DNA of 64,000 bases from a virus. Lineage: Duplodnaviria > Caudoviricetes. This document shows, piece after piece, positions 42,192 to 63,608 of this stretch. The DNA is taken from positions 1,786 through 65,785 of the IMG/VR virus record IMGVR_UViG_3300021964_000051. One strand, given 5' to 3'. The first letter of the stretch is position 1, and every line of letters starts with the position of its first letter. The notes under the pieces were generated by a model. The model was not told the DNA's origin, did no database searches, and worked only from the letters and a program-made list of their open reading frames with translations. Both the position numbers and the translations under genes were made by a program.

Positions 42192-43361
42192 TCAAAGGTT
42201 TCCTCCAACCATTTTATGAATGTCAGCCCAATCCATTTCGGCTAATTCTTCCATAGTAGGGAGTTTGATTTGGGCTTCTTCTTGAGCCTTAATGATGCTA
42301 TCTCTTTCAGTCGTCAAAGACTTTCGGAGAGCAGTAAATTCCTGCTTAAGAGAAGCAATTTCGCTTTGTGCATCATATTGCGACTTAGCGAGAATGTGTT
42401 CTCTTGAAGAGGTTTCAGCATTGAAACGAGCCTCAAATTGCTTTTGGAGGTTATCGTAAGCCAATTTCTCCAATTGTTCTTGACGGAAAGCCTCGTAAGC
42501 CTTCTCAATGTTTCCAACGGACAAATCAAGAGTTTCTAATTCTTGGTTGTCAAATGCCTTAACAACGGGCAAATCCGATGCTCTTGGCTTTCCGTTGTCA
42601 ATAACGACTCTATCGGCAGGTTCACCGATTTCAACGCCAGCACCGTCAAGGGTAGAAACATAAGCCTTTGCTTCGGAATCACCGTAGCCCATGCTTTCTT
42701 CATCTTCTTCCATCGGCATACCCTTTTCATCTGCGGGCATATCCATACTTTCCTCTTCTTCTTCTTTACGGAGCATATTCACTTCTTCCATCAAAGCGTC
42801 TAGTTCCGCTAATGCTTTTTCAATTTTGGTCATATTTTTCACCTTTTTATCTTGCTTTAAAATGTCAAATTTTGCTTCTGGATTAATTCCTTTTTCACAA
42901 ATAGTGACTTCGTGTAATTCTAACTTTGAAATTTCATTGTATTGTCCAAATTCATCATTGGTTTTCTTTACTTTTTCTAAAGCCTGTCCTCCAATACTGA
43001 AACTTCTTAATGAACCTTTTCTAATGCCTCGGTTAATTTCTTTGGCTTTTTCAATATCATCTCTTAACTTAATAACAACAAAGAATCCAACATCATCAAC
43101 TTCAGTTTTCCATATTCGTCCTGTTTTATCTCGGTATGATTCAACAACTTCCCCAACTTGAACATTTGAATGATTAGTCATTACATTTCTAAACTTGGGG
43201 TTCTCCATATATTTTTTAACAGCATCATTGAGTGCTTTAAGTGTAATTAAGTCATTTTGCTTATCAACGATTTCAATGCTTGCATATCCACCAATCATTA
43301 ATTCGTCGCTTTTTAGAATCCTGAAATCTTGAGTTGTGTTTCTCATCACAGCAGAAGTCAT
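42192..43361 (-). CDS. prohead protease fused to a scaffolding domain
   Basis: IGGYAS..VDKQND, H in MTNHS, SFSIGG and EVTIC..GINPEA; acidic coiled-coil C-terminal half. Confidence 0.9.
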   Translation of the reverse strand: MTSAVMRNTTQDFRILKSDELMIGGYASIEIVDKQNDLITLKALNDAVKKYMENPKFRNVMTNHSNVQVGEVVESYRDKTGRIWKTEVDDVGFFVVIKLRDDIEKAKEINRGIRKGSLRSFSIGGQALEKVKKTNDEFGQYNEISKLELHEVTICEKGINPEAKFDILKQDKKVKNMTKIEKALAELDALMEEVNMLRKEEEEESMDMPADEKGMPMEEDEESMGYGDSEAKAYVSTLDGAGVEIGEPADRVVIDNGKPRASDLPVVKAFDNQELETLDLSVGNIEKAYEAFRQEQLEKLAYDNLQKQFEARFNAETSSREHILAKSQYDAQSEIASLKQEFTALRKSLTTERDSIIKAQEEAQIKLPTMEELAEMDWADIHKMVGGNL

Positions 43362-43405: not shown

Positions 43406-46387
43406 CTAATCCTCAACAGGAAGGGGCAATTTGTTATACCTATCCTCATAAATATTCCACTTTCCTTCATCCCCGTCTTTATCAGCAGGTTTTTGTTTGA
43501 ATCCTGTCCATGCTAACCACATAGACTGTCCATCAACTTCAATGACTCTATAATGCATTTTAGTTTCAAATTTATTGCCTTCTAAGAAATATTCATGGTA
43601 GCCGTCCCTTTGAATACCTAGACGAATTTTACCAGAATCTATAAGTTTTCCCTTAGAAACAGTCTTTGCTACTTCTGCTGGATATTTACCAGCCGCACCG
43701 AATAAGTCAAACATCTCTTCTTCATTTTCAATGTTAATTGTCCAGAACATATTTTCTGTTTTAAGTTTAATTGCTAGAGTTAAATTATCATCTTCTCTAG
43801 CATAAATTTTAAATTCTCCTTCTCTTAATTCAGGAGGTGTTTTATATTCTCCTTCTACTGCTTTAATATCCTCTTTTAGCATAGCATATTTATCACTAAA
43901 ACCAGAGTCTCCGTGAACGCATTTTTGATATTCTTCTAAGGCTCGTTTTAGTTCACCTATATCTACCCCATCTACGGTAGTATCAAAAAATTCTTCAACT
44001 ACTTCCACTAATATTTCACATTTTAAAGTATCTACTGCATTATTCATGGCTTGCACTTCTGCCTCATAATTGTTTTCCCAATTATCCTCTTCAAATTCTT
44101 CTGGTCTTGACAAAACATCTTCATATAGTTTTTCATAACTGCCATAATATCTAATATGAGCGTCTAGGGTTTGTTTTCTGTTTTGTTTAATGGCTTCCTT
44201 TAAATTGCGACAACATTCATCATCTTCGTTTGTATCAATTTGAACTGCATCATCTTCTTCTGCTTCTTCAATGATTTCTTTAGTGCGAACCAATTCAGCC
44301 ATTTTAGTTAAACTTTTTTTAATTTCCTCTTCCTGCATAATTTTATCATCATCAGCAGCAATTTTATTATCTTTTTCACTAATACCGTCTCTAAGGACAG
44401 CCCATTGTTTTAATTTCTTTTCACTAGAATCAAGAACTTCTTCATATAAGTCCTTATGTTTTTCTTTCAAAAAATTATGTAATTGTCTCGGAGTCTGTTC
44501 TCCATTTAATTTTAGGTGCTGAAACATAGCAACAGTTAATTCACTTTGTTTAGTTTTCATAATGTCCAATGCCTGTTGCTTCCACATATCTAAATCCATA
44601 GTAGCGTTCTTAGACATTAAATTATTTTCTTCATATCCATAAATAGTAAATCCATCTAAATCATATTTTATGATTACATTTGCTTCTCCGTGAATATGGT
44701 CTGTAATTTTAATACCTTTCTTAAATGCTTCAACATTATAGTTTAAAGATTTTTTGGTGTCTTGAGACAATAATTCCAAAGTGACTAATTTATCGGGATG
44801 TTCAACTTCAGGAACTTCAATTACTTTAGCAGAAAATAAACTATACCCTTCTCCTTTCTTTTTAACTTCATCCACTTTAACTCGGATAATATCTCCAATA
44901 TCAACAGAAATTTTAGTATTTAAAGCCCTACCTACATTTAAGTATTGTCTTTTATTAACATCAACTGTTCCTTCCATTTCTTCTGTGATTGGCCCAACAC
45001 CAACACTATAAGAATAAAGATTACTCTTGGTCTTTTTCTTGTCAAGAACAATAACATCTAAATCAACAAACTTTTTCCATTTAATCCACTTAGGATTTTT
45101 CTTTGTTCCGATATAATAAGTTGAAGTAGAGTCTTTAATAACTACTCCCTCAGAAGCAGGGTTTTCCATAATTTCTTTTGAATACTTTTCAATATCCTTT
45201 AAGTTATCTGCTTGTCTTGTATCTTTCTTTGATGGGAAAGCAATCACTTCATTTGTTTTTGAAGAATAATTGTTGAATAATATAGTCATTCTATTTTCTA
45301 ATTCCTCATCAGCGAGAGTTTGAGATTCATGTCGTATAATATCAAAGACATGACAACGCAGTTTTGCATCTTTGTATTTTCCTTTGAAAACATGAGCGAT
45401 AGTATCTGCTCTATGCAAGGGTTCACCTTCATCATCAAATAGAACTAATTCACCATCTAAAATACAATCACCATATTCTTTCTTTTTAAGTTCCTCAACT
45501 TGTTCTTTACATTTCTTAGTAATGTCTTTTTCATTATAAGAATATATTGTAACTTTGTCATCAATTTTATGTAATTGAACTCTCATACCATCATATTTTT
45601 CTTGAACATACCAATTTCCACTAAAGCCTTTTAATTCATTAATGTCATCTATTTCAAATATTCTATACATGGGTTTATTGGGAACAATAAATTGTGAAAT
45701 TGATTTTTTCTCATCACTTGGAACAGACTTAGAAAGACCTTCAATATCAATTAATTCTTCCCATTCTTTTTGTTCTTTCTTAGAAAAGAAAATTAGTTCT
45801 AACATATCCATAGCAGCCTTTACTTTAGATTCAACTTTCTTTGAGTCTTTTCCATCCCCGTAATGCTCAATAATATAGAGGGCTACATCGTCTGATTCTA
45901 GGTCAAGTCCGATAAGACCCTCCGTAATTGTGTCGGGGGTCATGCCTTTAACCTCATAAATGTCATCAGATAGTGCTTTATTGTTGTCTCTTATTGCATA
46001 ATGCACAAACTTAACCATAGATTCGGGATTATCTAACAATTCTTCAAGAACACCATCCTTGAACATGGAGGCGAAGGGGTCGTCCACAATGGACGAAGAA
46101 TAACGAAGAAGTTTAATATTTTCAAACAGTTCTTTAGCCTGTCTTGAAGTAGGGTCTTTAGTGTCCTTATCTTCTAAATTTTTTTCATCAATAAAGTTCC
46201 GCATTTCTTTTCCTGCGGCATCTGTTTCATTATATGATTCAATGATAGTATCAACTGCTTTACGCCAACGACCACTATACTCATTAGGGTCTTGCTTTGC
46301 AGATAAATAGGCTACTCTTGTCTTTTCAAATAGACGAAGAATTTCTTGAGAAGGTTGTTTATCCTTCTCAATAGAAGCCAACTTCAT
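43406..46387 (-). CDS. large multidomain protein with an ATP-dependent DNA ligase domain
   Basis: EKYDGMR, LDGELV, VFDII, EGVVIK, WIKWKK and an OB-like region, with long extra N- and C-terminal regions. Confidence 0.85.
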   Translation of the reverse strand: MKLASIEKDKQPSQEILRLFEKTRVAYLSAKQDPNEYSGRWRKAVDTIIESYNETDAAGKEMRNFIDEKNLEDKDTKDPTSRQAKELFENIKLLRYSSSIVDDPFASMFKDGVLEELLDNPESMVKFVHYAIRDNNKALSDDIYEVKGMTPDTITEGLIGLDLESDDVALYIIEHYGDGKDSKKVESKVKAAMDMLELIFFSKKEQKEWEELIDIEGLSKSVPSDEKKSISQFIVPNKPMYRIFEIDDINELKGFSGNWYVQEKYDGMRVQLHKIDDKVTIYSYNEKDITKKCKEQVEELKKKEYGDCILDGELVLFDDEGEPLHRADTIAHVFKGKYKDAKLRCHVFDIIRHESQTLADEELENRMTILFNNYSSKTNEVIAFPSKKDTRQADNLKDIEKYSKEIMENPASEGVVIKDSTSTYYIGTKKNPKWIKWKKFVDLDVIVLDKKKTKSNLYSYSVGVGPITEEMEGTVDVNKRQYLNVGRALNTKISVDIGDIIRVKVDEVKKKGEGYSLFSAKVIEVPEVEHPDKLVTLELLSQDTKKSLNYNVEAFKKGIKITDHIHGEANVIIKYDLDGFTIYGYEENNLMSKNATMDLDMWKQQALDIMKTKQSELTVAMFQHLKLNGEQTPRQLHNFLKEKHKDLYEEVLDSSEKKLKQWAVLRDGISEKDNKIAADDDKIMQEEEIKKSLTKMAELVRTKEIIEEAEEDDAVQIDTNEDDECCRNLKEAIKQNRKQTLDAHIRYYGSYEKLYEDVLSRPEEFEEDNWENNYEAEVQAMNNAVDTLKCEILVEVVEEFFDTTVDGVDIGELKRALEEYQKCVHGDSGFSDKYAMLKEDIKAVEGEYKTPPELREGEFKIYAREDDNLTLAIKLKTENMFWTINIENEEEMFDLFGAAGKYPAEVAKTVSKGKLIDSGKIRLGIQRDGYHEYFLEGNKFETKMHYRVIEVDGQSMWLAWTGFKQKPADKDGDEGKWNIYEDRYNKLPLPVED

Positions 46388-46392
46388 ACTAA

Positions 46393-46929
46393 TCATCTAT
46401 TTTTTTGGTATTCGGAGTCTAAAGTTTCTCCTGAATATTCCGAATCATAAGCAATCGTTTGTTCAGGAATTTGAGATAATTCGCTTTCAAGTTCCATTAA
46501 TTTCTTATTAACTTCAACAATTCTATTCATCATCTCATTCTGTTCATCGGGTTTAGCATCCTTGATTTGTTTAGATAACCCAGTAAGCATAGCAGATAAA
46601 CCATCAATTTGTCCAATCAATCTCATTCTTTGTTCATGGTCTAACATAGGATTAGTTTCATAATCTTCAGGTAAAATGTTCTTTAGAATCTTAACCATTT
46701 TAGTTACTTCACCAGCATAAGCATGAAGAGTAGTCGGGCCATCATTTGATTCTGCCTTGTAGTTGTAATTTTCAGCCTTTGGTCGCTTCAATTTAACTGC
46801 TTCTGAATCATCATCTTCTGGACTACGGTTGTTGTCCATTAAGGATTGATAAAGCATTTCTTTTGCTTCTCTTGCTTTTTGAATCATAATACTGATTTTT
46901 CTTTCTTCTCTAGTAACTCTTTGAGGCAT
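46393..46929 (-). CDS. hypothetical head-region protein
   Basis: ORF with a GAGTGA RBS; coiled-coil C-terminus. Confidence 0.65.
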   Translation of the reverse strand: MPQRVTREERKISIMIQKAREAKEMLYQSLMDNNRSPEDDDSEAVKLKRPKAENYNYKAESNDGPTTLHAYAGEVTKMVKILKNILPEDYETNPMLDHEQRMRLIGQIDGLSAMLTGLSKQIKDAKPDEQNEMMNRIVEVNKKLMELESELSQIPEQTIAYDSEYSGETLDSEYQKNR

Positions 46930-47184: not shown

Positions 47185-47439
47185 TCACATTCCAAATTTA
47201 GCCTTGCACCTGTCTCTTTCTTCCATATATTCTTTTTCAGACATTCCGCCCATTCCAAATTTCTTATTCAAACGGTCTATACAGGCAAGATAACTTTGAG
47301 AATCTAAAGTGCTTCCCCTCATGGGCTTTCTTCTACTTCCGCCTCTAAATCCTGCTGAACTCAGTCCTCTTCCTTTTGATACTTCATTACAGTCATCACA
47401 ACCGCAACCATGTGCCTTTAATATATTTTTCCAACTCAT
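47185..47439 (-). CDS. WxxILK-leader Cys/Gly/Arg-rich small protein
   Basis: MSWKNILKAHGCGCDDC... Confidence 0.7.
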   Translation of the reverse strand: MSWKNILKAHGCGCDDCNEVSKGRGLSSAGFRGGSRRKPMRGSTLDSQSYLACIDRLNKKFGMGGMSEKEYMEERDRCKAKFGM

Positions 47440-49690: not shown

Positions 49691-50016
49691 AGTTTTTCCT
49701 CCAATGTTCCCTGTGTTCTTTCTAAAATAGCAATGATTTGTTCTTTGGAAAGGCTTTTAATATAATTAGTAGCCCTATCAATTAAATCTTCTCTTGTCAT
49801 TTCAGCAAGATTAGACATATCTTCTTCAAAAACCATATCTAAACTATCCACTCTTCCTCTTGGATTTAGGTCAGCAATAGGATTTCCTCCCTTCATTCTT
49901 GTTTGAGTGGGTCTTTTGACCTTATTACTCAAAACCTTTTCAGGGATTTCTTTACCCCCTCCAAGTTTGCCTTTTCTATCTCTTACTGCTTTTAAAATAT
50001 TTTCCCAATTATTCAT
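49687..50016 (-). CDS. WxxILK-leader protein
   Basis: Starts MNNWENILKA immediately after the portal stop. Confidence 0.7.
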   Translation of the reverse strand: MNNWENILKAVRDRKGKLGGGKEIPEKVLSNKVKRPTQTRMKGGNPIADLNPRGRVDSLDMVFEEDMSNLAEMTREDLIDRATNYIKSLSKEQIIAILERTQGTLEEKL

Positions 50017-50017
50017 C

Positions 50018-51658
50018 TTAATCAACTCTCCTTTCGGTTCTGTTGTCATTGTTTTGATTACCTGCATCTAATGGTAATCCCGAAAGTCTCTTATCGGGTG
50101 CTACGCTCATCCTGCTTTTATTCCTTGTGGCGGGTGGGTTCTCTTGAGGTTTCCCTCCGCCTTCCATAGCCTGTTCTTGCATCTGCCCTAGTTGTGAAGC
50201 ATCAATATTTGTTCCTGCATAGGGGTCAGGAGCCGCTTGTTCTCCTTCACCTTCTGCTGGCGGTTTTTCTTCGGGTTCAGGTTTCTTAAAAGTAAAGTTA
50301 CCATCTTCATCCATATCAACATCAAATCCTAAATTTTTAGTTGATGCTGCGATATTAACTTCTATTTCACGCTTACGAAGAACAGCAATTTCATCTTCTT
50401 CTTCGCTCGGTGGTAATTTCAAATCCCAATCTGTAATTCCAAATTGTTTAACAAGGAACGGAAATACATAATTATTATACACAGTTTGTGCTTTTTGAAC
50501 TGCACGATTTGTTACGAGGATTTGCATACCTTCATTGTTTAATCCACCGCTTGTAGTGTTATCAGCCATGAATACTTTACTTACACCATAGAACGCTGAA
50601 ATTCTATCTCGCAAATCATCTTTAACAGAAACATAATCCATTTCCTTAAGACTATCCATGAACTTAATCCATTCAACTGCTCCCTTACCACTTTCTGCTT
50701 CAATTCCCATAACTGGGATAAAATGAGGGTCAGCCTCCATTTTTTCTTTTACTGAACGCCAAAAAGAACGCATTGAGTCCATATTTCTAGTTTGAACTGC
50801 AAGTAATCCTCTCGGCATTCTGCTCTTAGTATAAGATTGATTAACATAGTTTTCCATAGCAATAAGAGTCATAATATTATTAAATAAAGTAATAACAGGA
50901 GACATACCATAAAGACGAGAAGGACTATATTTACTAAAATGTAATACTTCTCCCTTTAAAAAGTGCTGGTCTTCCCCATTTACTCTATTAACATAATGAA
51001 TAGGAAATAAATTACTATCACAGACTTCACATCTTTCGTGAGGGTCAGGATGAATGACTCCACGATGATTTACACAAGTGAAACCTTTAGTTCCTCTTTG
51101 TCCATTTTCATCACTATAAATAAACATAGTAACTGGGTCGCCACGATAAATTTCTTTAATTCTATGCATTCTAATTTTACCATTACCATCAATAAAATAT
51201 TCTTTAACCAAAACAATGTAAGCATCGTCCATGATATTTAAATCATCTTCAAGTTCTTGAAGAACATCAATAAATAGTTGTTCAGATTTATTAACATATC
51301 CTTCAATGAATCTTTCAGCATATTCTAATTGTTTAACATCAGGAATTTTTAAATCAGGACTTTTACAACGAGAACATTCTTGAACAGGTCTTTTATGTTC
51401 TTTTCCACAAGAATTACATAGTGCTTCATAAGACTTTTCCCAAACATATCCTCTTCTAAAAACTTCTTGTTTTAGTTGAGTAATACAAGTTCTAGCAATA
51501 ACAGATTGATTAACAATATTATAGATAATTGGGCCAGTCATCATGTGATTGGTTTCCCTTTCTTGGATGCCCATATTGAAAACTTTTCTATCAGCAGGTT
51601 TAGGAGTTTGCCTCCTAAAGAGGTTACTAAAACTAAATCTTCTGCTATCTTCAGCCAT
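50018..51658 (-). CDS. portal protein with two zinc-ribbon insertions
   Basis: EVLHF..YGMSP, MPRGLL and ISAFYGVS portal motifs; CNSC..CSRC and CVNH..CEVC inserts. Confidence 0.9.
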   Translation of the reverse strand: MAEDSRRFSFSNLFRRQTPKPADRKVFNMGIQERETNHMMTGPIIYNIVNQSVIARTCITQLKQEVFRRGYVWEKSYEALCNSCGKEHKRPVQECSRCKSPDLKIPDVKQLEYAERFIEGYVNKSEQLFIDVLQELEDDLNIMDDAYIVLVKEYFIDGNGKIRMHRIKEIYRGDPVTMFIYSDENGQRGTKGFTCVNHRGVIHPDPHERCEVCDSNLFPIHYVNRVNGEDQHFLKGEVLHFSKYSPSRLYGMSPVITLFNNIMTLIAMENYVNQSYTKSRMPRGLLAVQTRNMDSMRSFWRSVKEKMEADPHFIPVMGIEAESGKGAVEWIKFMDSLKEMDYVSVKDDLRDRISAFYGVSKVFMADNTTSGGLNNEGMQILVTNRAVQKAQTVYNNYVFPFLVKQFGITDWDLKLPPSEEEDEIAVLRKREIEVNIAASTKNLGFDVDMDEDGNFTFKKPEPEEKPPAEGEGEQAAPDPYAGTNIDASQLGQMQEQAMEGGGKPQENPPATRNKSRMSVAPDKRLSGLPLDAGNQNNDNRTERRVD

Positions 51659-51956: not shown

Positions 51957-52244
51957 TCACCACAATTTTTTACAGGCTAAACATTTAGGAGTAGTAATTC
52001 TTCCTTTACATTGGTCACAGTTATGTCGTGCTTTGAAATTAGCACGACGCTTTTTGTTAGTATGTGTTCCGCCACCACGATTCTTTCCTTTTCCTTTGTA
52101 ATTACCATAACCCTTCGCACCAGCATGAATTTTCTTTCCTTCGTGAGTAAGCATCATAATTTTCTTACCTTCCCTATCAGAAGCATAAACACGACCAACT
52201 CTCATATCTTTTTTGTCTTTCTTTAAAATTTCTTCCCATACCAT
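51957..52244 (-). CDS. basic small protein with a WxxILK leader
   Basis: MVWEEILKK; GKK...IHAGAKGY...RRANFKARHNC pattern, recalled from widespread marine-virus basic proteins. Confidence 0.7.
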   Translation of the reverse strand: MVWEEILKKDKKDMRVGRVYASDREGKKIMMLTHEGKKIHAGAKGYGNYKGKGKNRGGGTHTNKKRRANFKARHNCDQCKGRITTPKCLACKKLW

Positions 52245-52255
52245 AATATCATCTC

Positions 52256-52420
52256 CTAATAAGGCTTTGTCCATAATTTTGCTTCATCAATTTTACAAGT
52301 CCAACAGCGTTTGGAAATAGTTTCTTTTTTACATTTTCTACAAACGGTTGCGTATCTAATTTTTTTAGGCAGTTTTGTTCTTACTCTATGCTTAAAAACA
52401 TCATAATGTCTGCGAGGCAT
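52256..52420 (-). CDS. 54-aa basic zinc-finger microprotein
   Basis: Translated by hand as MPRRHYDVFKHRVRTKLPKKIRYATVCRKCKKETISKRCWTCKIDEAKLWTKPY; fills the gap between its neighbours. Confidence 0.65.
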   Translation of the reverse strand: MPRRHYDVFKHRVRTKLPKKIRYATVCRKCKKETISKRCWTCKIDEAKLWTKPY

Positions 52421-52795
52421 TCAACCTTTCCTCCTTTTATAAGTTTTACAAGCGGCACAGGTTGGTCGGCATCTTTGCTTTGTTCCTTTAGAAGCATCCT
52501 TTCTTCCGCAAGGTTTTGTTCCTTCCTTATCATCTTCGCAAGATTGACAAGAAACCCAACCTTTCTGTCCATCTCCACCTCTTCTTGAAAACCAACCGTG
52601 AAGTCCTTCCTCTTTTTCTCTTTTGAAATTATCTCCGCCTTTTTTTACAGAATTACCCCAATTCTTTGCACCGACCTTTCGGCATTGAACCAAAGCACCT
52701 GAAGCATAAGCAGAAGGCCATTTCTTATAACGACTCCGCACCTTATGATAACAGGCATCTTTTTCCTTTATGAGTTCTTCAAACCATAAGGACAT
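52421..52795 (-). CDS. basic Cys-rich protein with a W..LIK leader
   Basis: MSLWFEELIK; DACYHKV..RY..WPSAYASGALVQCRK and L..WF...GWV..KPCGR modules recalled from marine phages. Confidence 0.72.
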   Translation of the reverse strand: MSLWFEELIKEKDACYHKVRSRYKKWPSAYASGALVQCRKVGAKNWGNSVKKGGDNFKREKEEGLHGWFSRRGGDGQKGWVSCQSCEDDKEGTKPCGRKDASKGTKQRCRPTCAACKTYKRRKG

Positions 52796-54419
52796 TTAAA
52801 TCACCCTTCCAAACGCTTCCTTTTTCTTCCACATATAACTTAATATATGTATGCATTCTTCCTATCGCATAATTGTAATTATTTCCTGATTCATACATAT
52901 AATCTGCTATTTTTAATTCATGTAAAATTTTATTAAGTCTTTCATTGTCGTGTGATTTTCCTCTATTTAAAGATAAAATGTTTTTTGCTGTTTTAATAAT
53001 ATGTTCTACTGCGCTATCATCTAATCCTTTCTTTTGTCTTAAATAAGGCGTGGAACTTTTAATAACTGTTCCGATTTGTTCAAGCGAATCCATCACAGAA
53101 ATTTTACAATTATCTTTATATTTTTGAATATCGTCAAGATTAATATTTTCTTTTGTCCAATCAAATCCTACATGGTCTTTATGATTTTCCCACTTCATTA
53201 ATTTAAAAATTTCATCACATCTATTTTTATACCAGTCTGCTTTCTTGTATGATTTCTTCATACGAATCAATTCAAGAAGCAATTCAGCATTACCTTTCTT
53301 TAATCTAAAATGAGGTAAGCATTTTGTTAAAAGATTAGAAACATCTGCCTGTGAATAAAAATTTAAACGATTAATAAGACGAGTATCTTGTGGTGATTTT
53401 TGGTCTAAGTGCATACGGCCAAAACCAATTGATTTGTGCATTTCTTGCATAAAAGCCTTACCTCTTTCACCAGTAGCAACTAAACCTACTCTTGGGTTCA
53501 TATTACGGTCAAGAGTAATATAACCATCAGAGTCAATAAACGCAGCAGTATAAGCCCAAATATTTTTCTTTATCATTGAAGGAACTTTATAGTAAGAACC
53601 CTTCACAGAAACAATATCTAGTTTTTTAATTGCCTTTGAGATAGAATTAGGGCTTGCCGCTTTATGTAAAGTAGAAGGCATTCTTTCGTGAATACTTGAC
53701 GCATTAATTCCTGGATTTTCACAAACCATTTTGAGAATAAAATCATTTTGTCTTTCATTTTTTGATTTAGTAAGTGATTGGTCAGTAATTTTGTTAATTG
53801 CTCCTCTAAAATCTTTTTTAGCAGAACTCATAGTTTTATGTAAATCAGAATATTTTTTTCCATAAGCCATTCCTGTTTGCTCAATTTCTGCCTCCCAAAA
53901 CTTACAAAGAGCATCAATAGTCTCTCTTCTTAATTCAGCACTTTTCATCTTATGGAGTTTTGACAAATCTTTTTCGTTATAGCGCATCTTTCTAAGTGGA
54001 ATCTGATAATCATTTAACCAAGTTATAGAATCAATACACTTATTTAAATGGTCAGTATAAGCATCAATCATTGTATCAATTGCTTTTGACATTCGTGTTC
54101 GGTGTTCTCCTTTTAATGCACGACGAGCCTTTCTCATCTTTCTAACTAAATCGGGAATAGTATGTTCTTGAACAATGTATTCATTAGGAAATTCAGTTAA
54201 TCTTTTTCTTGCATCACTAGCATTAATGTTAAAAGAATTAGATAATTTAACGATTTCTTCATGCTCAGACATTACATAAGAATTACTAAAAACACTCTTT
54301 AATTCAGTATCTAATTGTTCCTCTATGGTATCTTTGACACTCTCTTCTTCTTCGTCTAAATCGGCCAAACGGTTCATTTGTTCAGCCGCTTGTCGGTATT
54401 TATCTGCCTGTTCTGTCAT
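52779..54419 (-). CDS. multidomain protein: helical N-terminus, HTH-like segment and LAGLIDADG endonuclease domain
   Basis: YTAAFIDSDGYI (LAGLIDADG helix), LPHFRLKK, and NPGINASSI...SISKAIKKL (HTH-like). Confidence 0.8.
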   Translation of the reverse strand: MTEQADKYRQAAEQMNRLADLDEEEESVKDTIEEQLDTELKSVFSNSYVMSEHEEIVKLSNSFNINASDARKRLTEFPNEYIVQEHTIPDLVRKMRKARRALKGEHRTRMSKAIDTMIDAYTDHLNKCIDSITWLNDYQIPLRKMRYNEKDLSKLHKMKSAELRRETIDALCKFWEAEIEQTGMAYGKKYSDLHKTMSSAKKDFRGAINKITDQSLTKSKNERQNDFILKMVCENPGINASSIHERMPSTLHKAASPNSISKAIKKLDIVSVKGSYYKVPSMIKKNIWAYTAAFIDSDGYITLDRNMNPRVGLVATGERGKAFMQEMHKSIGFGRMHLDQKSPQDTRLINRLNFYSQADVSNLLTKCLPHFRLKKGNAELLLELIRMKKSYKKADWYKNRCDEIFKLMKWENHKDHVGFDWTKENINLDDIQKYKDNCKISVMDSLEQIGTVIKSSTPYLRQKKGLDDSAVEHIIKTAKNILSLNRGKSHDNERLNKILHELKIADYMYESGNNYNYAIGRMHTYIKLYVEEKGSVWKGDLNVLMV

Positions 54420-54428
54420 ATAAATACC

Positions 54429-55859
54429 TCAAAAGTTCAAGCCTATGGTGGACGAAAAGCCCTGTTGTGGTCGTTGTGGCTCATCACCAAACAGTCCTAA
54501 ATCATCAAGGAGTATGAAGTTATCCGAGGCTTGGTATGTGGCCGCATTTGCTAAAGCAAGGCTCATCACCATGTCGTCATGCGCCCCAATTCCCTCAAAC
54601 TTTCCTCGTTCAGTAATCGCAAACATTGACATTTCTTCAATCAATAATGAAGAAACTTTTCTACTCTCTTCGTTGCCGTATGGAAAGTTAATCTTTCCAT
54701 TTTCAAGAGTCATCTGTAAATTAAGAATAATCTCCTGTTTCTTTCTTCGGGTTGTATCAAAATCATGAACATTTACATCAGCAACTTGCCGAAGTTCTTG
54801 AGTAAAGGATTTAGCAAATGTGTTTGTTTCAAACAGAATAACTTCTGGTCTAAAGACCTGATTTAGTAATTTTACCTTTTGAATGTTTTCACGAAACTGA
54901 ACATTTTTTGCTCTATCAACATAGACAATAGATTTATTTTCATTAGCGTCCATTTCAATGACAGTAATAACATTATAGTCGCCATCTGTTGAAATAGCAG
55001 GGTCTACGCCAATAAAATACTTATATCCTTCACGCTTCAAAGGCTTCAATACTAAGTCTTTATTCTTAGCATTCTCTAAATGTTCTGGACTAAACAAAGA
55101 AGTTCCTGTTGAAATCGGAACACACATATATTCTCTTGTGAACATCAATGAACCAACTTCCGCCTTACGAGCCATTAATGCTTCATAGTTCCAACGCTCA
55201 GGCCATAGCGGTTCGTTTAGTGCGTTTAAACAGGGGTAAGTTCTAACAGTATAAGCAGTATTTTCTGCTAATTGTTGGTAAATATCTGTATAACTGAAAG
55301 GAGTTCCAATGACACGCAAAGAAGCGGTGTGGTGAAGAGTAGGAATCATATCACCATAAAACCAATCAGTCACTTTTTGAATACCTGTCATACTAAACTC
55401 TTTCAAAGGGTCGTCAATAATAATTTCTTGAGGGTGAAGCCCACGAATCTGCGAACCAACCGACCTCTCAAGGATTTGGTTTCCATTGGTTAATGTAATG
55501 TTTCCAATAGCCCAACCTCTTGCGGGTTTAAACTTCTTAAGCATTGGATGGGTGAACATTTTATCAATGTCTCTCATGTGAACGAGAGTCTGCTTTTGGT
55601 TAGAAGAAATATAAAGCATTTGATATGGTGGCTCTTCAAAAATTAACTTCCATACAACCCAACTGTGCATAAATACAGATTTACCGTGGTCACGGGAACA
55701 AATAATAACTGTTCTTTGGGTAGTGTTCATTAATTCGTGCCATTCTTGAATATAGGAAGGAAAGTCAAAACCTAATACATTTTGAAAGAAATACGGAAAT
55801 GAATTGCGGGACAATTGCATATCCATTTCGTGTTCAAAATTGAAGGCTTCTAATTCCAT
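54429..55859 (-). CDS. terL: terminase large subunit
   Basis: Walker A SRDHGKS, RG motif, Walker B IIIDD, IGTP, nuclease GVDPA and HDDMVMS. Confidence 0.95.
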   Translation of the reverse strand: MELEAFNFEHEMDMQLSRNSFPYFFQNVLGFDFPSYIQEWHELMNTTQRTVIICSRDHGKSVFMHSWVVWKLIFEEPPYQMLYISSNQKQTLVHMRDIDKMFTHPMLKKFKPARGWAIGNITLTNGNQILERSVGSQIRGLHPQEIIIDDPLKEFSMTGIQKVTDWFYGDMIPTLHHTASLRVIGTPFSYTDIYQQLAENTAYTVRTYPCLNALNEPLWPERWNYEALMARKAEVGSLMFTREYMCVPISTGTSLFSPEHLENAKNKDLVLKPLKREGYKYFIGVDPAISTDGDYNVITVIEMDANENKSIVYVDRAKNVQFRENIQKVKLLNQVFRPEVILFETNTFAKSFTQELRQVADVNVHDFDTTRRKKQEIILNLQMTLENGKINFPYGNEESRKVSSLLIEEMSMFAITERGKFEGIGAHDDMVMSLALANAATYQASDNFILLDDLGLFGDEPQRPQQGFSSTIGLNF

Positions 55860-57937
55860 TAATACGCCTCCTCAAGTAATTTATCTACTTCTTCTTTTTG
55901 TTTTTTACCGATAAAAATGTTTTTCTTTCTATTATCTAAAATAGTCTTGTCAATCATCGGTCTTACATGGCCTATGGGTAATCGCCAGTTAAGTTTTGTT
56001 TGTAATATTTTATCTATTCTGTCTCTTGCATTTTGCTTTCTCTCAGCAGGAGATAGTGTTGAAGAAACGGCTGGTTTAGTTTCAGGCTTTTCTTCTTTTG
56101 GTTGTGTTTCAGGCTTAACTTTACCTTGCTTAAATGCTTCTAGGCTTGTTAAAAGTTTATTTTTCTCTTCTTCTGTCATTTTTTTATTACGGACTTCTTC
56201 TAATAATGCTGCCCCTAACTGCTGAATTGCTAATTGTGGGCCTAAACTACTCATAGTGACTCCATATTTATCTAATACTTCTTTTACTTCTGCAAAGGTT
56301 TTTTGAGGAATAACTTCTTCTTCCCACATAGGGTATTCATCTTTTACATCTCCCCTTTTATATCCAGCATCTTCATCAGAATATTGATGTTTAGGTTTTC
56401 CATAATCACCGTCATAAATTGTAGTGAAAACTACTGCTAAATCATAAGGATTTGTTGCTTTACCTGCACGAGAACTAGTTTTTGCCTGTTGTGGTAGGGT
56501 ATCTCCTTTACCAAGCATTTCAAAAACAATTATTTCATTTCTGTTAGGTTTAATATAAAACCAACCATGTTTAGAAGAAGGAGGATTACTTAAAATCTTT
56601 TTTGCGAACATATCTAAATCTTCTTCTGTATATATGTCAGTATTTTTAAGATATTGTTCACCCCTATAAATGTAATGCCCACTAACATAAACTCTTTCGT
56701 TTGTTGGAACATCTTCGTCCTTTTTAGCATCTCTCATAGAAACAGGTGCTTTACTTTTATATCCGCCAGCATCATGTGGCTTATAAAAGTCAAAATCAAC
56801 ATAACTACTATCTGGCCTCCACTTAAGAATATCTTTCCAAGACTTCTCAAAAGTTGGGAAAATATTCTTTGGTTCTTTTGGTAGTCTCCTATTATTTGGT
56901 TTTCTTCCCAATCCTCTCACCCCATATTTTCCATGAATGTTAAGAAATTTTCTTCCTTTTGGAATACCTTGTCCTCTTTTGACTTTACCGACCATTTCTT
57001 TGCTAACGCCTGTAAAAACAATAGCAGTTTCAAATCCTTCCAAATTAAGTTTCTTATCTGCGGTTGCTGTGTAAGGCTCTCCTTGTTTGATAACATCAAT
57101 CATAACATAAGTATTGTCTTGCTTTACATTTGTTCCAAAGAACCAGTATTTTCCTTTCTTTAGATTCATCTCAGTTAATTTTTCTAACCAACCTTTCATT
57201 AAAGTAGTCCCTGCATTTGGTATTCTGTCGCTAACCTGTCTTAAATATTGCTGAGAGACAAATGCCTTATATTCTGCTTTACCCTTTGACTTAATATTTT
57301 TGTCTTTAAATCTGTCTCTTGTTCCTAAGTCGGGTGCAGGTTCTCCCAACTCAAAATCATCCCAAGTGTTATCGGGTAAGTATTTGAGAAGATTAAACCA
57401 AGCAGGAGCAGGGTCGTCAAGATAGATACACTTAGCAAACTCACCCTTACCACGAATAGAACGAATAGCCCAATTACCATTAGGATATGCACTATTCCAT
57501 TCATTAACTACTGATTCGGGAAGCATTTGTTTTGCTTGTTCCCAATTCTCGCTATCTGGAAAAATCCATCCATTCTGTTTTGCAGTAGAAATCCAACGAG
57601 CATTATTACCATCCCTATGTCCAAAAGCAGCAACTAAAGGTTTAGATTGATTTAACTGTGGCTCTCTCGCATCCTGTAATGCACGATTATTTCCACCTAT
57701 TTCTCTTCCTTTAGCACTAGCATACATTCCACCAACAACAGTATGTGATGGGTGTTCTTTGAAGCCGACTGTTGATATTGCTTTATTATCATCATCAACA
57801 CGAATAAGCCAGTTATCTAAAGCATAAAGACCAGTTTCTAAATCCTTTCTGCGAGTATAAGGGTCGTCAGGGTTATCCTGAGCAAACCTTCTTTTCATAT
57901 CTTCATATGAAAATATCGCAGGAAGAACCTTAACCAT
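55859..57937 (-). CDS. modular protein (GNAT-like N-terminal domain plus two related domains) with internal WxxLLK/WxxILK motifs
   Basis: VGGMYASAKGREIGG resembles GNAT motif A; WFNLLK and WKDILK precede domains 2 and 3. Confidence 0.7.
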   Translation of the reverse strand: MVKVLPAIFSYEDMKRRFAQDNPDDPYTRRKDLETGLYALDNWLIRVDDDNKAISTVGFKEHPSHTVVGGMYASAKGREIGGNNRALQDAREPQLNQSKPLVAAFGHRDGNNARWISTAKQNGWIFPDSENWEQAKQMLPESVVNEWNSAYPNGNWAIRSIRGKGEFAKCIYLDDPAPAWFNLLKYLPDNTWDDFELGEPAPDLGTRDRFKDKNIKSKGKAEYKAFVSQQYLRQVSDRIPNAGTTLMKGWLEKLTEMNLKKGKYWFFGTNVKQDNTYVMIDVIKQGEPYTATADKKLNLEGFETAIVFTGVSKEMVGKVKRGQGIPKGRKFLNIHGKYGVRGLGRKPNNRRLPKEPKNIFPTFEKSWKDILKWRPDSSYVDFDFYKPHDAGGYKSKAPVSMRDAKKDEDVPTNERVYVSGHYIYRGEQYLKNTDIYTEEDLDMFAKKILSNPPSSKHGWFYIKPNRNEIIVFEMLGKGDTLPQQAKTSSRAGKATNPYDLAVVFTTIYDGDYGKPKHQYSDEDAGYKRGDVKDEYPMWEEEVIPQKTFAEVKEVLDKYGVTMSSLGPQLAIQQLGAALLEEVRNKKMTEEEKNKLLTSLEAFKQGKVKPETQPKEEKPETKPAVSSTLSPAERKQNARDRIDKILQTKLNWRLPIGHVRPMIDKTILDNRKKNIFIGKKQKEEVDKLLEEAY

Positions 57938-57943
57938 CAAACA

Positions 57944-60392: not shown

Positions 60393-62672
60393 CTAATCAC
60401 TCACTTGTTGTCTAATGATGTTTGCCTCAAGGAACCTTTTATTAGCAAGAATAACTTGGTTGTCTGGGAATGAGGCTGGATTTTTAACAAATTTCTCAAG
60501 ATGTAATTTAAACCCTTCAATAATCTGTTTTTTGATATTTTCTATAATGTTAGGCATATTGTCATTTAATTTCTTAGCCGCCTCTTGCGCTTCTGCTGAA
60601 TCGGGGTTAGCGTCTATGGTCTTAAAGGATTCCCTTACTTCCTCGTCGCCAACCAACTCATCAACTTGAGCAAAGAAACTTAAACTTCTTTCGGGAGTAA
60701 TTGTCTCTAAAGCAGATGCTTTATTTTCTAAAGTGTCAGCGAGTTTTATTAAGCCCCCACTATCCTTTAATTTTTTACCCATCATAATAATATATGCTTC
60801 AAAATCTTCCATGTTTAAAACTTCTTGACGAAGGGTTTCAGTTTGAGCAGAAATATCTATTTCTTTTTTACCTTCTAATCTTTTCTCAGTTTGAGCAATA
60901 TCTCTTTTGAGATTCTTAATTTTTTCTTCTTGTCTTGAAATAGATTCAAGTTTATCCTTCGGTAATTTTGCTTTTCTTCGCATGGCTGTTTCTAATTTTT
61001 GTTTAAGATTAGAAAGTGTTTCCTCAGTCTTTGTTTTTGCACTTTCGGATAACTCAGCAGTTTTACCTCTAACTCCTTCCTTATATGCAGTTTTGGGAGA
61101 AACTTGTTTTAATTCTCCTGTTTCATCATCAATAACTTTAATTACTGCATAATTTGCTTTTTCTTTACCTGAATACCATCTCATTATTTTTTGTCCAGAT
61201 TCATCATATTGTTCGTTTCCATTTTCATCAAGGTCAGGCCCAAGAAACTTTGTGTCATATCCGTCTCTAAAATATTCAACAGTAAAATCTTCACCTTCTT
61301 CATAAAATAGTTCATCTTCTAAAGAGTTAATATAAGCAGTAGCCTCTTTAATAGTAAAATTACCTTCAAGGAATGTCAATTGTTCTTTTTGTCTATTTAG
61401 TGCTTCTGTGGAAATTATGTTCTGGATTCTCTCACTATCAGAAATAATTTTTCTAATTTCAGAAGTAATTTGTTTTCTAGACTTTGAGCCAAGTCCATCA
61501 ATACTAGTAAAAGCACGAATATTAAACTTTCTATCAGTAGATGTTTTACCAGCAATTAATGCTTGATAAATCTCTTCAATAATTGTTTCAGTTGCCTGTT
61601 CTTCTGTAAGTAACTGCTGGACTCTTATAGAATTAAAGAAAGGTTTAGCCCAATCATTAGGAAAGTCGTTTGTAAGAATAATTTTAACAAAAGGATTAAC
61701 ATTTAAAGATTTAGGACTAGATTTATCCAAGAAAATAACAGAAGCAAAGTCAGAACCGTTTGGAAATTTTTTAGGCCTAAATGCTCTTACACTTCCAGCA
61801 ATATTATCAACCGCACTAATGTATTTCATAACAGAAGCACCAGTAAAAGGCTCAACGATTTCCATTTTTTCGCCTGTTGCTACAAAAATCTTCTTTTGAC
61901 GAACTAAATCATCAACTTCAACAGATTCGCTGCCTGAAACAAATAACATTTTCGTATTTGTCTTGCTTCCATCGGGATTTCTCATAATTTTGTTGTAAGT
62001 TTGCTTAACCCTGTCTTTTTGCGTAATAGTCGCATCATCGTCAATGATTTCCTTTGTCTTTTTGCTTCTTTTTGGAACCATTAGAGCAACTAATTCACCA
62101 TTATCTTTTAAATCTGTCAAAATTGAGCCTTCTTTTAGTTCTCCGCCGATTGCTTCGGCAAAATCAGCCAAAAGTTGCTCATTTGATGGTGGATTTTCAA
62201 ACATAATTACAGATTTTCCTGATTTTTCACGCAAAATGTCCAAAGCATCTCTAATATCTCGGTTGGATTGGAGGGTTCTCTTACCTAAATTAGCATTTTG
62301 CTCAATTTCTTCCAAAATTTCATCAACTTTTTGTTGATTTGATTGACTTTTGGCCTCCATAGCCTCATTGAGTAGCCTTCTTACATCATCAATTGTCATA
62401 AAACTAGCGGCTTCCTTCAATTTTTGAATATTTTCTTGCATTTGCTCAATGGTTTGGTCGCCAAACGGAGGTTGACCGTATAAATCTTTCAGTTTTTGCA
62501 GGTCAATTGTCCCTGCATCCACTTGACGAAGCACATCTTTCAATTTTTGGGGCTCAGTTTTAAGATTTTTAATGTCTTCAACTGCTTTTGCTGTTTGAGC
62601 AGCATTAACAATTACAAAGGCCAAAGTATTTTTGTTCGATGGAATCATTTTTAACTGCTCAAACCAACTCAT
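60393..62672 (-). CDS. large helical protein with a W...LK leader, possible internal virion protein
   Basis: Starts MSWFEQLK after a GGAG RBS; 759 aa. Confidence 0.72.
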   Translation of the reverse strand: MSWFEQLKMIPSNKNTLAFVIVNAAQTAKAVEDIKNLKTEPQKLKDVLRQVDAGTIDLQKLKDLYGQPPFGDQTIEQMQENIQKLKEAASFMTIDDVRRLLNEAMEAKSQSNQQKVDEILEEIEQNANLGKRTLQSNRDIRDALDILREKSGKSVIMFENPPSNEQLLADFAEAIGGELKEGSILTDLKDNGELVALMVPKRSKKTKEIIDDDATITQKDRVKQTYNKIMRNPDGSKTNTKMLFVSGSESVEVDDLVRQKKIFVATGEKMEIVEPFTGASVMKYISAVDNIAGSVRAFRPKKFPNGSDFASVIFLDKSSPKSLNVNPFVKIILTNDFPNDWAKPFFNSIRVQQLLTEEQATETIIEEIYQALIAGKTSTDRKFNIRAFTSIDGLGSKSRKQITSEIRKIISDSERIQNIISTEALNRQKEQLTFLEGNFTIKEATAYINSLEDELFYEEGEDFTVEYFRDGYDTKFLGPDLDENGNEQYDESGQKIMRWYSGKEKANYAVIKVIDDETGELKQVSPKTAYKEGVRGKTAELSESAKTKTEETLSNLKQKLETAMRRKAKLPKDKLESISRQEEKIKNLKRDIAQTEKRLEGKKEIDISAQTETLRQEVLNMEDFEAYIIMMGKKLKDSGGLIKLADTLENKASALETITPERSLSFFAQVDELVGDEEVRESFKTIDANPDSAEAQEAAKKLNDNMPNIIENIKKQIIEGFKLHLEKFVKNPASFPDNQVILANKRFLEANIIRQQVSD

Positions 62673-62688
62673 TGTAATTTCTCCTGAA

Positions 62689-63126
62689 TTATCTTTTCCA
62701 TGAAGGAATGTTCTTTTCATCAGTAGTCCAGCCTTCTCCGCCTGTTCTTTCCCATGATTGGGGATTAGAAAAATATTCTTGAATTAATTCCCATAATGCT
62801 TTTCTTTGGGGCAAGTTATCTTCTTGTTGCATAATTTCCATAAGAACGCCCGAAATAGTATTAGAAACACCATATCTACCTCTATTGAATTTATTTTTAC
62901 CTGAAACTTTTTTAAAGGCCGTTATAAATTTATCAACACCAACATAAGTTTTATCCTTTAATTCATATTGAATACCGCTTCCCATTTGGTCTTTAGTCAT
63001 AAAATCTTTCATTTCTTTTGGGTTTTCCATATCTTCCCAAGCATTAGATTCTTCTAAATAACTAGGGCCAGCAACGCCCTTTCTATCATGTTCAAATCTT
63101 GATTTGATTATATCTTTCCAACTCAT
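62689..63126 (-). CDS. WxxIIK-leader hypothetical protein
   Basis: Starts MSWKDIIKS. Confidence 0.75.
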   Translation of the reverse strand: MSWKDIIKSRFEHDRKGVAGPSYLEESNAWEDMENPKEMKDFMTKDQMGSGIQYELKDKTYVGVDKFITAFKKVSGKNKFNRGRYGVSNTISGVLMEIMQQEDNLPQRKALWELIQEYFSNPQSWERTGGEGWTTDEKNIPSWKR

Positions 63127-63608
63127 TGTAATCTCTCCTGCATTTTTTTAGCGTGTTGTATTCTTTCTTCATTTGAGTAAAACTGAGCAGTAGTTTCCAT
63201 CAATTGATTGAATTGTTCGGGTGAAGCATAATTGACCCCATTACTCTCAAAGTCATCATAACCGACAAACTCTAGTTCTCCAATCAATTCATCTATTGCT
63301 TCCTTAACTTCTTTATCAGAAACCAAAGTATAGTCTAACTTACCCATACCCGCCATTGTGTATTCGGGGTCATCTTCCAAATCAATGTTTTCTTTAGTTT
63401 CTTTTGCTTGTTTTATTGTAGGTTTTCCTATATTTTTCATAGGTCTTTTTGTATTGGCTTCGGAACCATAGACAGAATAAACTACGGCTTGATTAAAATA
63501 AGGAGTCCAATAGTTCGTATCTTCTTCTGATTGACTTCCTTGATATAAAAAGGGAGTTTCTGTCCCCCCAATAGAATATGGAGATTTCAAAACAGTTTTC
63601 CAACCCAT
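63123..63608 (-). CDS. WxxVLK-leader protein, paralog of 38534..39169
   Basis: MGWKTVLKSPY; LYQG..YWTP...A..YS..GS..KPTIKQA. Confidence 0.72.
   Translation of the reverse strand: MGWKTVLKSPYSIGGTETPFLYQGSQSEEDTNYWTPYFNQAVVYSVYGSEANTKRPMKNIGKPTIKQAKETKENIDLEDDPEYTMAGMGKLDYTLVSDKEVKEAIDELIGELEFVGYDDFESNGVNYASPEQFNQLMETTAQFYSNEERIQHAKKMQERLQ

Follow-up and report, generated by a model that had tools for sequence, protein, structure and literature searches.

Why should one short peptide motif recur at the domain boundaries of a single viral protein and also stand at the beginning of unrelated proteins encoded nearby? The question is raised by a gene in the IMG/VR record IMGVR_UViG_3300021964_000051 (Duplodnaviria; Caudoviricetes), which comes from a magrovirus-like archaeal tailed virus. 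We analyzed positions 1,786 to 65,785 of this linear record, referred to below as the window, which comprises 64,000 of its 65,785 bases; the completeness estimate is 71%. The gene occupies positions 55859 to 57937 of the window on the minus strand, directly upstream of the large terminase gene, and runs for 692 codons from an ATG at 57937 to a stop codon at 55859-55861. Its product is an in-frame chain of separable modules, and the first two junctions each carry a six-residue leader motif, generally of the form W-x-x-[IV]-[LI]-K, which we call the tag. The best explanation overall, to which we give a rough probability of 0.45, is a polyvalent late protein whose cargo modules are joined by this portable tag, with docking, cutting, and delivery as proposed below.

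An in-frame TTG stands one codon before the ATG, at 57940, and would extend the gene to 693 codons (55859-57940, minus strand). Homologs begin at a methionine equivalent to the ATG at 57937, and the 692-residue form from that ATG is on record as protein P0050 (100% identical). Residue numbers here are counted from the TTG (693-residue numbering). Module 1, a GNAT-fold domain, covers approximately residues 2-172 (57425-57937) and is followed by tag 1, WFNLLK (residues 181-186), which is preceded by a conserved DDP-x-P-x. Module 2, which we term type A, takes up residues 187-344 (56909-57382), a basic, proline-rich linker residues 345-367 (56840-56908), and tag 2, WKDILK, residues 368-373. Module 3, of type B, spans residues 374-545 (56306-56821); neither module 2 nor module 3 has an assigned fold. 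The C-terminal part (55862-56305) consists of a helical region (residues 546-612), a low-complexity linker (613-625), and a tail module (626-693); the last is exchanged without a tag in P0002 (89% identical) and matches a 60-residue protein, P0049. An earlier note on this sequence had located both motifs by their tryptophan codons, and these codons do open WFNLLK at 57383-57400 and WKDILK at 56822-56839. Internal translation starts at the tags were considered and rejected: the codons before the tryptophans encode S or A, and there is no ATG, GTG, or TTG shortly upstream. A sequencing artifact that fused separate genes was also rejected, the fused architecture being common to 20 homologs from other samples.

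An AlphaFold model built on an alignment of 63 family members has a mean predicted local distance difference test score (pLDDT) of 81.6 and a predicted template modeling score of 0.37, a low value of the kind expected of beads on a string; a single-sequence model (mean pLDDT of 33) was not used. The pLDDT is 86 to 97 in module 1, mostly 74 to 93 in module 2, and 34 to 47 in the linker. Values below 50 are confined to residues 179-186, which hold tag 1, to residues 345-372, which hold the linker and tag 2, and to residues 613-625, and so both tags appear to sit in flexible joints and not within a domain. The earlier note had left the domain boundaries to such a model, and the model has well-folded domains with the tags in the low-confidence linkers between them; neither motif is buried in a single fold, the outcome that the note had regarded as contrary to its proposal. 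An ordinary multidomain protein, with motifs that are chance occurrences or parts of folds, is hardly credible as an explanation. Nothing of weight favors it; the protein is without a match in Pfam or PHROGs. When the 692 residues were shuffled 100,000 times, two or more instances of W..[ILVM][ILVM][KR] arose in 324 shuffles and one in 8,538. The position of the tags in low-confidence linkers, their conservation in homologs, and the existence of stand-alone forms headed by the tag, described below, also argue against it.

The model predicts that module 1 adopts the GNAT fold. In a Foldseek search of the PDB, its best E value was 3e-4 with a probability of 1.0, and GCN5, PCAF, and PA2271 were matched with template modeling scores of 0.46 to 0.61 by target. 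All 50 matches listed by a wide VIA-align search were proteins of the GNAT (acyl-CoA N-acyltransferase) fold, with Z scores of 7.5 to 9.4, root mean square deviations of 2.9 to 4.4 Å, and 112 to 154 residues aligned over model residues 1 to about 166; GNAT proteins were also matched in the viral structure library BFVD. In GNAT enzymes, motif A is the acetyl-CoA pyrophosphate-binding loop, which leads from strand 4 to helix 3 and has the consensus Q/R-x-x-G-x-G/A. Read by eye, the model has a glycine-rich loop, GREIGGN, before helix 84-95, from which the canonical last G/A is absent, and glycine is kept at this loop position in distant homologs. Sequence profiles do not detect the family, the sole Pfam sign among 20 homologs being a match of P0048 to Acetyltransf_1 that falls below the cut-off (E value of 0.043; 14.5 versus 20.7 bits), and for that reason we call module 1 a GNAT-fold domain and not a proven acetyltransferase. 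The "GNAT-like" N-terminal domain of the earlier note thus holds at the level of the fold.

The same note had pointed to a resemblance between domains 2 and 3, and the two are indeed paralogs. The likeness is weak in pairwise comparison (BLASTP E value of 0.022, 22% identity, colinear from the motif), but comparison of profiles with hhalign gave a probability of 99.3% and an E value of 1.9e-20 over 145 columns starting from the W (17 versus 54 sequences). By eye, type-B modules of relatives present the order W-x-x-I-L-K, x-x-P-D-x-x-aromatic, G-H-Y, W-F-Y, V-F-T-T, and D-I-W-x-x-G, and the type-A module of the focal protein has diverged counterparts of most of these motifs. Sequence searches of the PDB with modules 2 and 3 gave nothing better than E values of 0.29 and 0.72, and the ESM Atlas search gave no usable feature match and structure rows with template modeling scores of 0.55 or less, pointing to no family. 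Fold searches with the whole model were taken up by matches to the GNAT domain.

How the modules behave in relatives can be followed in the 48 proteins that an exhaustive phmmer search of 1.84 billion representatives returned at E values of ≤0.001 and in the 64 relatives of similar length from a word-indexed search. None of these relatives is named and none has a Pfam domain; no relative was found by tblastn against 50,697 phage records or by a scan of prokaryote genomes. The constant part of the family is the GNAT domain, and in most of the homologs listed the tag comes next. What follows the tag varies: module A and then B (as in the focal protein), B alone, an extra "NERY" cassette ahead of A and B, other modules, or a stop codon within 1 to 4 residues. 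Homologs of the GNAT domain carry the tag either behind the domain or in front of it (P0042 and P0043). Among the colinear homologs, tag 2 is kept as W..[IV][LIF]K in 20 of 20; at tag 1, the GNAT domain is joined straight to module A in 16 of the 20, and the other 4 have an extra cassette within tag 1, between a degenerate tag and a second tag. P0054 resembles the focal protein closely up to the end of tag 2 (GNAT, 90% identity; module A, 94 to 98%; tag 2, 100%) and only distantly beyond it (module B, 17%), whereas P0058 and P0059 combine a GNAT domain of 54 to 57% identity with a module A of 93 to 98%.

The breakpoint is equally sharp in the DNA. Identity to the related locus L001 is 80 to 98% in every 60-base segment up to tag 2 but one, the exception (68%) lying in the linker where L001 carries a small deletion, and directly past the K codon of tag 2, it falls to 35 to 55%. 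Other fusions in the related loci join short unrelated N-terminal pieces, by way of a tag, to proteins that are separate genes beginning M-x-W elsewhere, and P0011 even retains the methionine of the gene that was fused in. The tags are thus the exact points at which modules are swapped, inserted, split off, and fused among relatives. Single-linkage clustering of the tag-bounded segments placed everything in one cluster. Breakpoints that coincide with the tag are also what would be seen if the tag mattered mainly as DNA, that is, as an 18-base, near-identical joint for in-frame recombination with little function as a peptide, and genes that end a few codons past the tag resemble joins to noncoding or out-of-frame DNA. 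The codons of the tag, considered below, speak to this alternative.

If the modules are cargo cassettes fused in frame, each with its own tag, as the earlier note had it, then stand-alone homologs that begin with the tag should exist. For module 3, they do. Eight stand-alone homologs (P0036, P0038, and P0103 to P0108) start with M, 0 to 9 further residues, and W-x-x-I-[LI]-K, so the absence of stand-alone forms, which the note had counted as grounds for giving up its proposal, is not what we see. A profile search gave 14 matches, comprising 7 stand-alone proteins, 6 fusions, and 1 protein (P0037) that begins inside module A. P0104 (ORF L010:6821-7372; ORF, open reading frame) has 23 member sequences on 10 contigs. 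In L010, it is flanked by a shorter GNAT gene and the terminase gene, a position equivalent to that of module 3 in the focal gene. These stand-alone forms came from the exhaustive phmmer search and the profile search; a word-indexed search for short relatives of residues 181-693 yielded P0009 and P0021 only. No stand-alone form of module 2 was found by the exhaustive phmmer search or by the word-indexed search for short relatives, which tells against the explanation that we favor. The cassette proposal is accordingly supported by the tagged junctions, the exchange at the tags, and the stand-alone forms of module 3, to which module 2 offers no counterpart in these searches.

The tag is not restricted to this gene. 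It occurs 1 to 3 codons past the start codon in seven other minus-strand ORFs of the window, as MGWKTVLK (tag at 63585-63602; ORF 63123-63608), MSWKDIIK (63103-63120; ORF 62689-63126), MVWEEILK (52221-52238; a basic, zinc-ribbon-like ORF ending at 51957), MNNWENILK (49990-50007; ORF ending at 49687), MSWKNILK (47416-47433; a small Cys-rich ORF), MWWDILK (39149-39166; ORF 38534-39169), and MWFSILK (38499-38516; ORF 38226-38519). By eye, near-variant leaders are present on four more ORFs (WFEELIK, WFEQLK, WKEKILK, and WAECLK). All tagged ORFs of the window are on the minus strand between 38 and 64 kb, in a late block together with the TerL, portal, S78 protease, and capsid genes. The strict W-x-x-I-L-K pattern occurs in the DNA of the record six times on the minus and twice on the plus strand, compared with one and zero times in a reversed control. 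The window and 10 related loci together have 98 matches to the motif in open frames of at least 50 residues, and 60 of these are directly behind an ATG.

The 54 distinct N-terminal tags of the window and the 10 loci have their tryptophan at residue 2 to 4 (residue 3 in 42 of the 54). The W, [IV], [LI], and K are fixed, while both x positions vary, and so do the synonymous codons: ATT, ATA, or ATC for isoleucine, TTA, CTT, CTC, CTA, or TTG for leucine, and AAA or AAG for lysine. Because the codons vary under conserved residues, the DNA of the tag would be a poor substrate for recombination, and selection acts on the peptide. Together with the fixed place of the tryptophan in the leaders, this makes the purely DNA-based joint very improbable. 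Judged from its sequence, the tag is a signal at the level of the peptide, and we infer strongly that it is a functional, portable one. Its hydrophobic residues are spaced at i, i+3, and i+4, and the model has short helices over both tags (residues 180-187 and 369-371), for which reasons it plausibly forms an amphipathic docking helix.

When the DNA ahead of the tagged starts is translated in frame, N-A-G-E-I-T and N-G-E-D-E recur before many of them (for example, at 63121-63141 and 62671-62691). The repetition suggests that the DNA just 5' of the tagged ATGs is conserved, and a GGAG-containing, Shine-Dalgarno-like region, deduced from the translation, would fit; it also supports the tagged starts as true translation starts.

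What kinds of protein carry the tag was surveyed in 446 tagged ORFs from 91 sequences, a biased sample, as most of the sequences were picked for holding the tag. We scanned with Pfam 120 of the 181 cluster representatives of at least 110 residues, drawn from the tagged ORFs of related loci, and 6 of the 120 scored above the cut-offs. The families were a second GNAT, a nucleotidyltransferase of the CCA-adding/poly(A) polymerase type, a tRNA ligase CPD domain, pentapeptide repeats, PAP2 (a phosphatase), and DUF6321, and the tagged ORFs matched include L121:6432-7679, L121:7687-8100, L007:5246-6001, L099:10848-11420, and L122:7066-8679. The tag of the second GNAT is N terminal. In related viruses, the tagged nucleotidyltransferase ORF adjoins the tRNA ligase CPD ORF, and the tagged pentapeptide-repeat ORF is directly upstream of the GNAT gene. 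An H-E-x-x-H motif was noticed by eye in the tag-bearing P0032 (about residues 216-266), which has a weak SprT-like Pfam match (E value of 0.17), and in L103:1930-3096; it recalls the zincin-like peptidase, the commonest domain in polyvalent proteins. Two tagged ORFs (51957-52274 and 52421-52795 of the window, minus strand) encode small proteins that are strongly basic and rich in Cys; these have subthreshold matches to DUF5754 and DUF5872 and a strong match to PHROG 727, with a K-W-P-S-A-Y-A-S-G motif, and are candidates for DNA-associated internal proteins.

A leader shared by so many proteins might be read by the machinery of the host, a protease or a chaperone. The precedent is the staphylococcal phage 80alpha, in which nonhomologous phage proteins bear the same leader and the host protease Prp trims it (PMC5744158), and the large number and variety of tagged proteins would suit a general cytoplasmic reader more than the limited volume of a capsid. 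The distribution of the exact leader M-[ST]-W-K-D-I-L-K, the one spelling searched for, points the other way: it occurs in at least 119 IMG/VR stretches, many of them on contigs of 90 to 99 kb, but has only 41 scattered single matches in 185,579 prokaryote species (one genome each), none titled Poseidoniales. The confinement of the tagged genes of the window to the late block also fits a host reader poorly, and we regard such a reader as improbable.

A candidate for a viral reader is encoded in the same block. The S78 prohead protease (42192-43361, minus strand; Pfam and PHROG matches) has a scaffold-like C-terminal half, and several short segments of it resemble the tag. FRILK lies at its N terminus (43311-43325), FDILK at the junction of protease and scaffold (42855-42869), and WADIHK six residues before the C terminus (42213-42230). 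The major capsid protein (40828-42180, minus strand) has N-x-L-L-K at residues 26-30 (42091-42105), behind a variable stretch. In all of the complete relatives (60 of 60), the protease-scaffold protein ends with W-[ASN]-x-I-H-K-M; its W, I, H, and K never change, and both x positions vary, as they do in the tag. Of 100,000 shuffles, 193 placed W..[ILVM].[KR] in the last 16 residues. The N-terminal [FL]-x-I-L-K-S of the protease is present in 79 of 79 relatives, FDILK in 61 of 62 (the remaining one has an X), and the N-x-L-L-K of the capsid protein in 64 of 64. Other tailed phages use the C-terminal end of their scaffold or protease to hold on to the capsid protein. W-A-D-I-H-K may be the original of which the cargo tag is a copy, and a tag that copies this end would ride into the procapsid. 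The N termini of the capsid protein and protease and the protease-scaffold junction, where x-[IL]-L-K occurs, are places where maturation cuts are common. A three-chain complex prediction with the protease-scaffold protein, the capsid protein, and focal residues 345-400 scored 0.00 versus a mark of 0.32 and was counted neither way. The portal protein (50018-51658, minus strand) starts with R-F-S-F-S-N-L-F-R-R, which is kept in relatives and whose aromatic-x-x-aliphatic-aromatic-basic pattern loosely echoes the tag.

These elements can be assembled into one scheme. The tag would be a short amphipathic docking helix that imitates the C-terminal W-x-x-I-H-K of the protease-scaffold protein, and tagged cargo would thereby enter the assembling procapsid. 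Inside the procapsid, the S78 protease would cut the tags at or beside [IL]-L-K, and the mature products would be identical whether the genes are fused or separate. The freed modules, the putative acetyltransferase among them, would be carried in the head and delivered into the next host along with the DNA, in the manner of Alt and the internal proteins of phage T4. Docking and cutting of this kind would explain why the genes of this virus group can be fused and split so freely. Some of the domain types matched by tagged ORFs are known from phage counter-defense, and late-gene enzymes of that kind would make most sense if packaged for the next infection. For the first step, the addressing of tagged proteins to the procapsid by mimicry of the scaffold C terminus, we see about even odds from the sequence comparisons; the second, separation of the modules by the S78 protease, which is the polyprotein of the earlier note, is a tentative proposal. 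Broader still, and doubtful, is the thought that W-x-x-I-L-K is a single zip code that loads dozens of unrelated proteins into the HK97-type capsid and is protease cut site and in-frame joint for the fusion, splitting, and swapping of cargo genes between viruses as well. Its cargo would include acetyltransferase, tRNA repair, and DNA mimic types of protein, it would copy the C-terminal peptide of the scaffold, and the 692-residue protein would be one of its polyprotein forms.

Besides the lack of a stand-alone module 2, several observations weigh against the scheme. Residues past the lysine of the tag show no conservation. In some relatives, the chain ends 1 to 4 residues past the tag (WFDILR[VAM], WKQFLKR, or WQMVLKRR), where cutting would be pointless. 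The tag is very common, and a virus whose genome measures about 95 kb would not ordinarily be expected to hold dozens of different cargo proteins in its head. The x-[IL]-L-K motifs of the protease and capsid protein were noticed after the fact, and since these proteins are 76 to 95% identical among the relatives compared, the invariance of short motifs in them carries little weight. FDILK falls within residues 22-177, the part of the protease that Pfam matches to S78, and may be structural, as the last strand of the protease fold. Finally, the cultured halovirus HVTV-1, which has a related capsid protein, has no such tag, so that nothing can be transferred from studies of its virion.

Tags at 1 to 4 residues from the stop codon, and tags in tandem, fit docking better than they fit a pure cleavage site. 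They lead to a possible though unlikely alternative in which the tag is a docking peptide that is never cleaved: the protein would stay whole, and its two or three tags would bind a common partner multivalently, be it the capsid interior, the scaffold, the portal, or another viral hub. Fused and split forms would then be interchangeable because each module brings its own tag, with no protease needed. This would account for a tag that is tolerated at the N terminus, internally, or near the C terminus, and on either side of the GNAT domain; for the many relatives with tandem tags five residues apart (WFDMLK-SNQGA-WKTILK); for the helices predicted over the tags; and for the likeness to the C-terminal peptide of the protease-scaffold protein. 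For docking, however, one tag should suffice, yet the internal tags are kept in 20 of 20 colinear homologs while the sequence downstream diverges, and x-[IL]-L-K stands at the N termini of the capsid protein and the protease, which are common places of trimming.

Among known systems, the one closest in its working is the capsid-targeting leader of phage T4, which is carried by the internal proteins and Alt and is processed by the gp21 protease. Both are short N-terminal leaders on unrelated late proteins, and in our virus group, too, several unrelated proteins bear the same leader and the tagged genes lie in the late/head module with the prohead protease. T4 propeptides direct proteins into the prohead core, according to the account in PMC10052503, and Alt, a host-modifying enzyme, is described as packaged and injected with the DNA (PMC5512222). 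The T4 leader differs in its motif and in the family of its protease: the magrovirus motif is W-x-x-I-L-K, the protease is of the HK97-type S78 family, and the host is archaeal. Furthermore, the magrovirus tag occurs between domains, at C termini, and at recombination joints, and its part in packaging and cleavage is proposed here from sequence. Chains of several unrelated domains and strong mosaicism are likewise features of the polyvalent proteins of phages and conjugative elements surveyed by Iyer et al. (2017; PMC5512222), with GNAT as a recurrent protein-modifying domain. That survey links them to terminase-portal phages and predicts packaging and delivery together with the DNA, sometimes with release by a peptidase. 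The focal protein likewise has at least two unrelated domains in one polypeptide and a mosaic architecture among relatives. Where polyvalent proteins, as described there, use embedded peptidase domains, it has instead a recurring six-residue tag at its junctions, and its two paralogous modules matched no described family in the Pfam, PHROGs, PDB sequence, and ESM Atlas searches. In the sense of a polyprotein, it is for module 3 an in-frame fusion of units that are separate elsewhere, with a conserved junction site; for module 2, no separate gene was found.

The prohead protease motifs of giant phages (SPN3US gp245 and phiKZ) are similar in that one short motif is found in many head proteins, both N terminally and internally, and the protease also trims its own C-terminal part (PMC10052503). 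Mass spectrometry has proven the cleavage in those phages, whose motif has Glu as its last residue and whose propeptides are mostly 111 to 254 residues long; unlike the magrovirus tag, the motif is not linked in that account to gene fusion or fission or to recombination joints. The leader of the 80alpha capsid and scaffold proteins is also N terminal and on nonhomologous proteins, and assembly depends on it even where its cleavage can be dispensed with (PMC5744158). It is shared with ribosomal protein L27 and read by the host, whereas the magrovirus tag has no host counterpart for the one spelling tested; the 80alpha case nonetheless cautions that the reader of a shared leader can be an enzyme of the host. 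Polymorphic toxins have a short conserved motif at the joint of their parts. They too, the MuF toxins of phages included, combine a conserved N-terminal part, encoded beside head genes, with a variable C-terminal cassette that recombination exchanges with stand-alone cassettes, as outlined in PMC3482391 and PMC5576092. The magrovirus protein shows no evident toxin/immunity pair, has a GNAT fold and not MuF as its conserved part, and shares its tag with the leaders of many small genes. The cargo-loading peptide of encapsulins is short and terminal, docks cargo inside a shell of the HK97 fold, and can be transferred to foreign proteins. Encapsulins are cellular compartments without protease or DNA, and docking of the magrovirus tag to a capsid is a proposal. 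In none of the known systems compared does one tag of six residues serve together as leader of genes, joint between domains, and breakpoint of recombination. No description of the tag was found in the main texts, as distinct from the supplementary gene tables, of the magrovirus papers searched.

The presence of the tag on a large share of the late genes provides a single handle on many magrovirus genes, most of which have no assigned function. If the tag loads proteins and is cut, the set of injected proteins could be read straight from the sequence, the interchangeability of fused and split genes would be explained, and shells of the HK97 type could be loaded by means of a portable peptide of very small size. 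Archaeal viruses would then possess a programmable system of natural origin for loading cargo, and these viruses would join the "polyvalent protein" strategies, for which the 2017 survey speaks of a "particular paucity" in archaea (PMC5512222).

The assignment of the virus to a magrovirus-like group rests on the genome as a whole. A replication set on the plus strand at 1 to 18 kb comprises an ATP-dependent DNA ligase, an RFC-like clamp loader, a family B DNA polymerase in two ORFs, a PD-(D/E)XK nuclease, and an ERCC4-HhH nuclease, and tail and head genes fill the minus strand from 18 to 64 kb, with the large terminase gene at 54429-55859. Among the 50,697 phage records, the best matches of the capsid protein are to haloarchaeal tailed viruses (24 to 25% identity). 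The combination of genes is the one given by Philosof et al. (PMC5434244) for magroviruses of Marine Group II archaea, and relatives of the focal gene are on IMG/VR contigs of up to 94 to 97 kb, the same size class as is given there for magroviruses. That paper counts the hosts, the Marine Group II archaea (Poseidoniales), among the microbes of greatest abundance in ocean surface waters, and host and virus are both uncultured (PMC5434244).

Some other genes of the window deserve mention. The gene directly downstream of the terminase gene (52779-54419, minus strand) is conserved in loci L001 to L010, and all of its homologs, which range from 453 to 750 residues, begin MTEQADKYRQAA. A weak homing-endonuclease-like stretch in the protein encoded here (PHROG "HNH endonuclease," E value of 9e-5, residues 289-406) suggests that an endonuclease or intein has been inserted. 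An ORF of 996 residues that separates the portal gene from the protease gene (43406-46396, minus strand) contains an ATP-dependent DNA ligase domain (Pfam E value of 9e-32, residues 255-441) in an otherwise uncharacterized sequence and may be another packaged multidomain protein; the second, ordinary ligase is encoded at 135-1670 on the plus strand. An ORF of 1,981 residues (20208-26153, minus strand) has no Pfam match and is presumably a tail or fiber protein; it coincides with the part of the window that is lowest in G+C content (0.29, versus about 0.35 elsewhere) and is possibly a recent acquisition. The two ORFs of the split family B DNA polymerase (9557-11191 and 11754-12647, plus strand) match Pfam profile positions 37-194 and 222-368 and are separated by a gap of about 560 bases.

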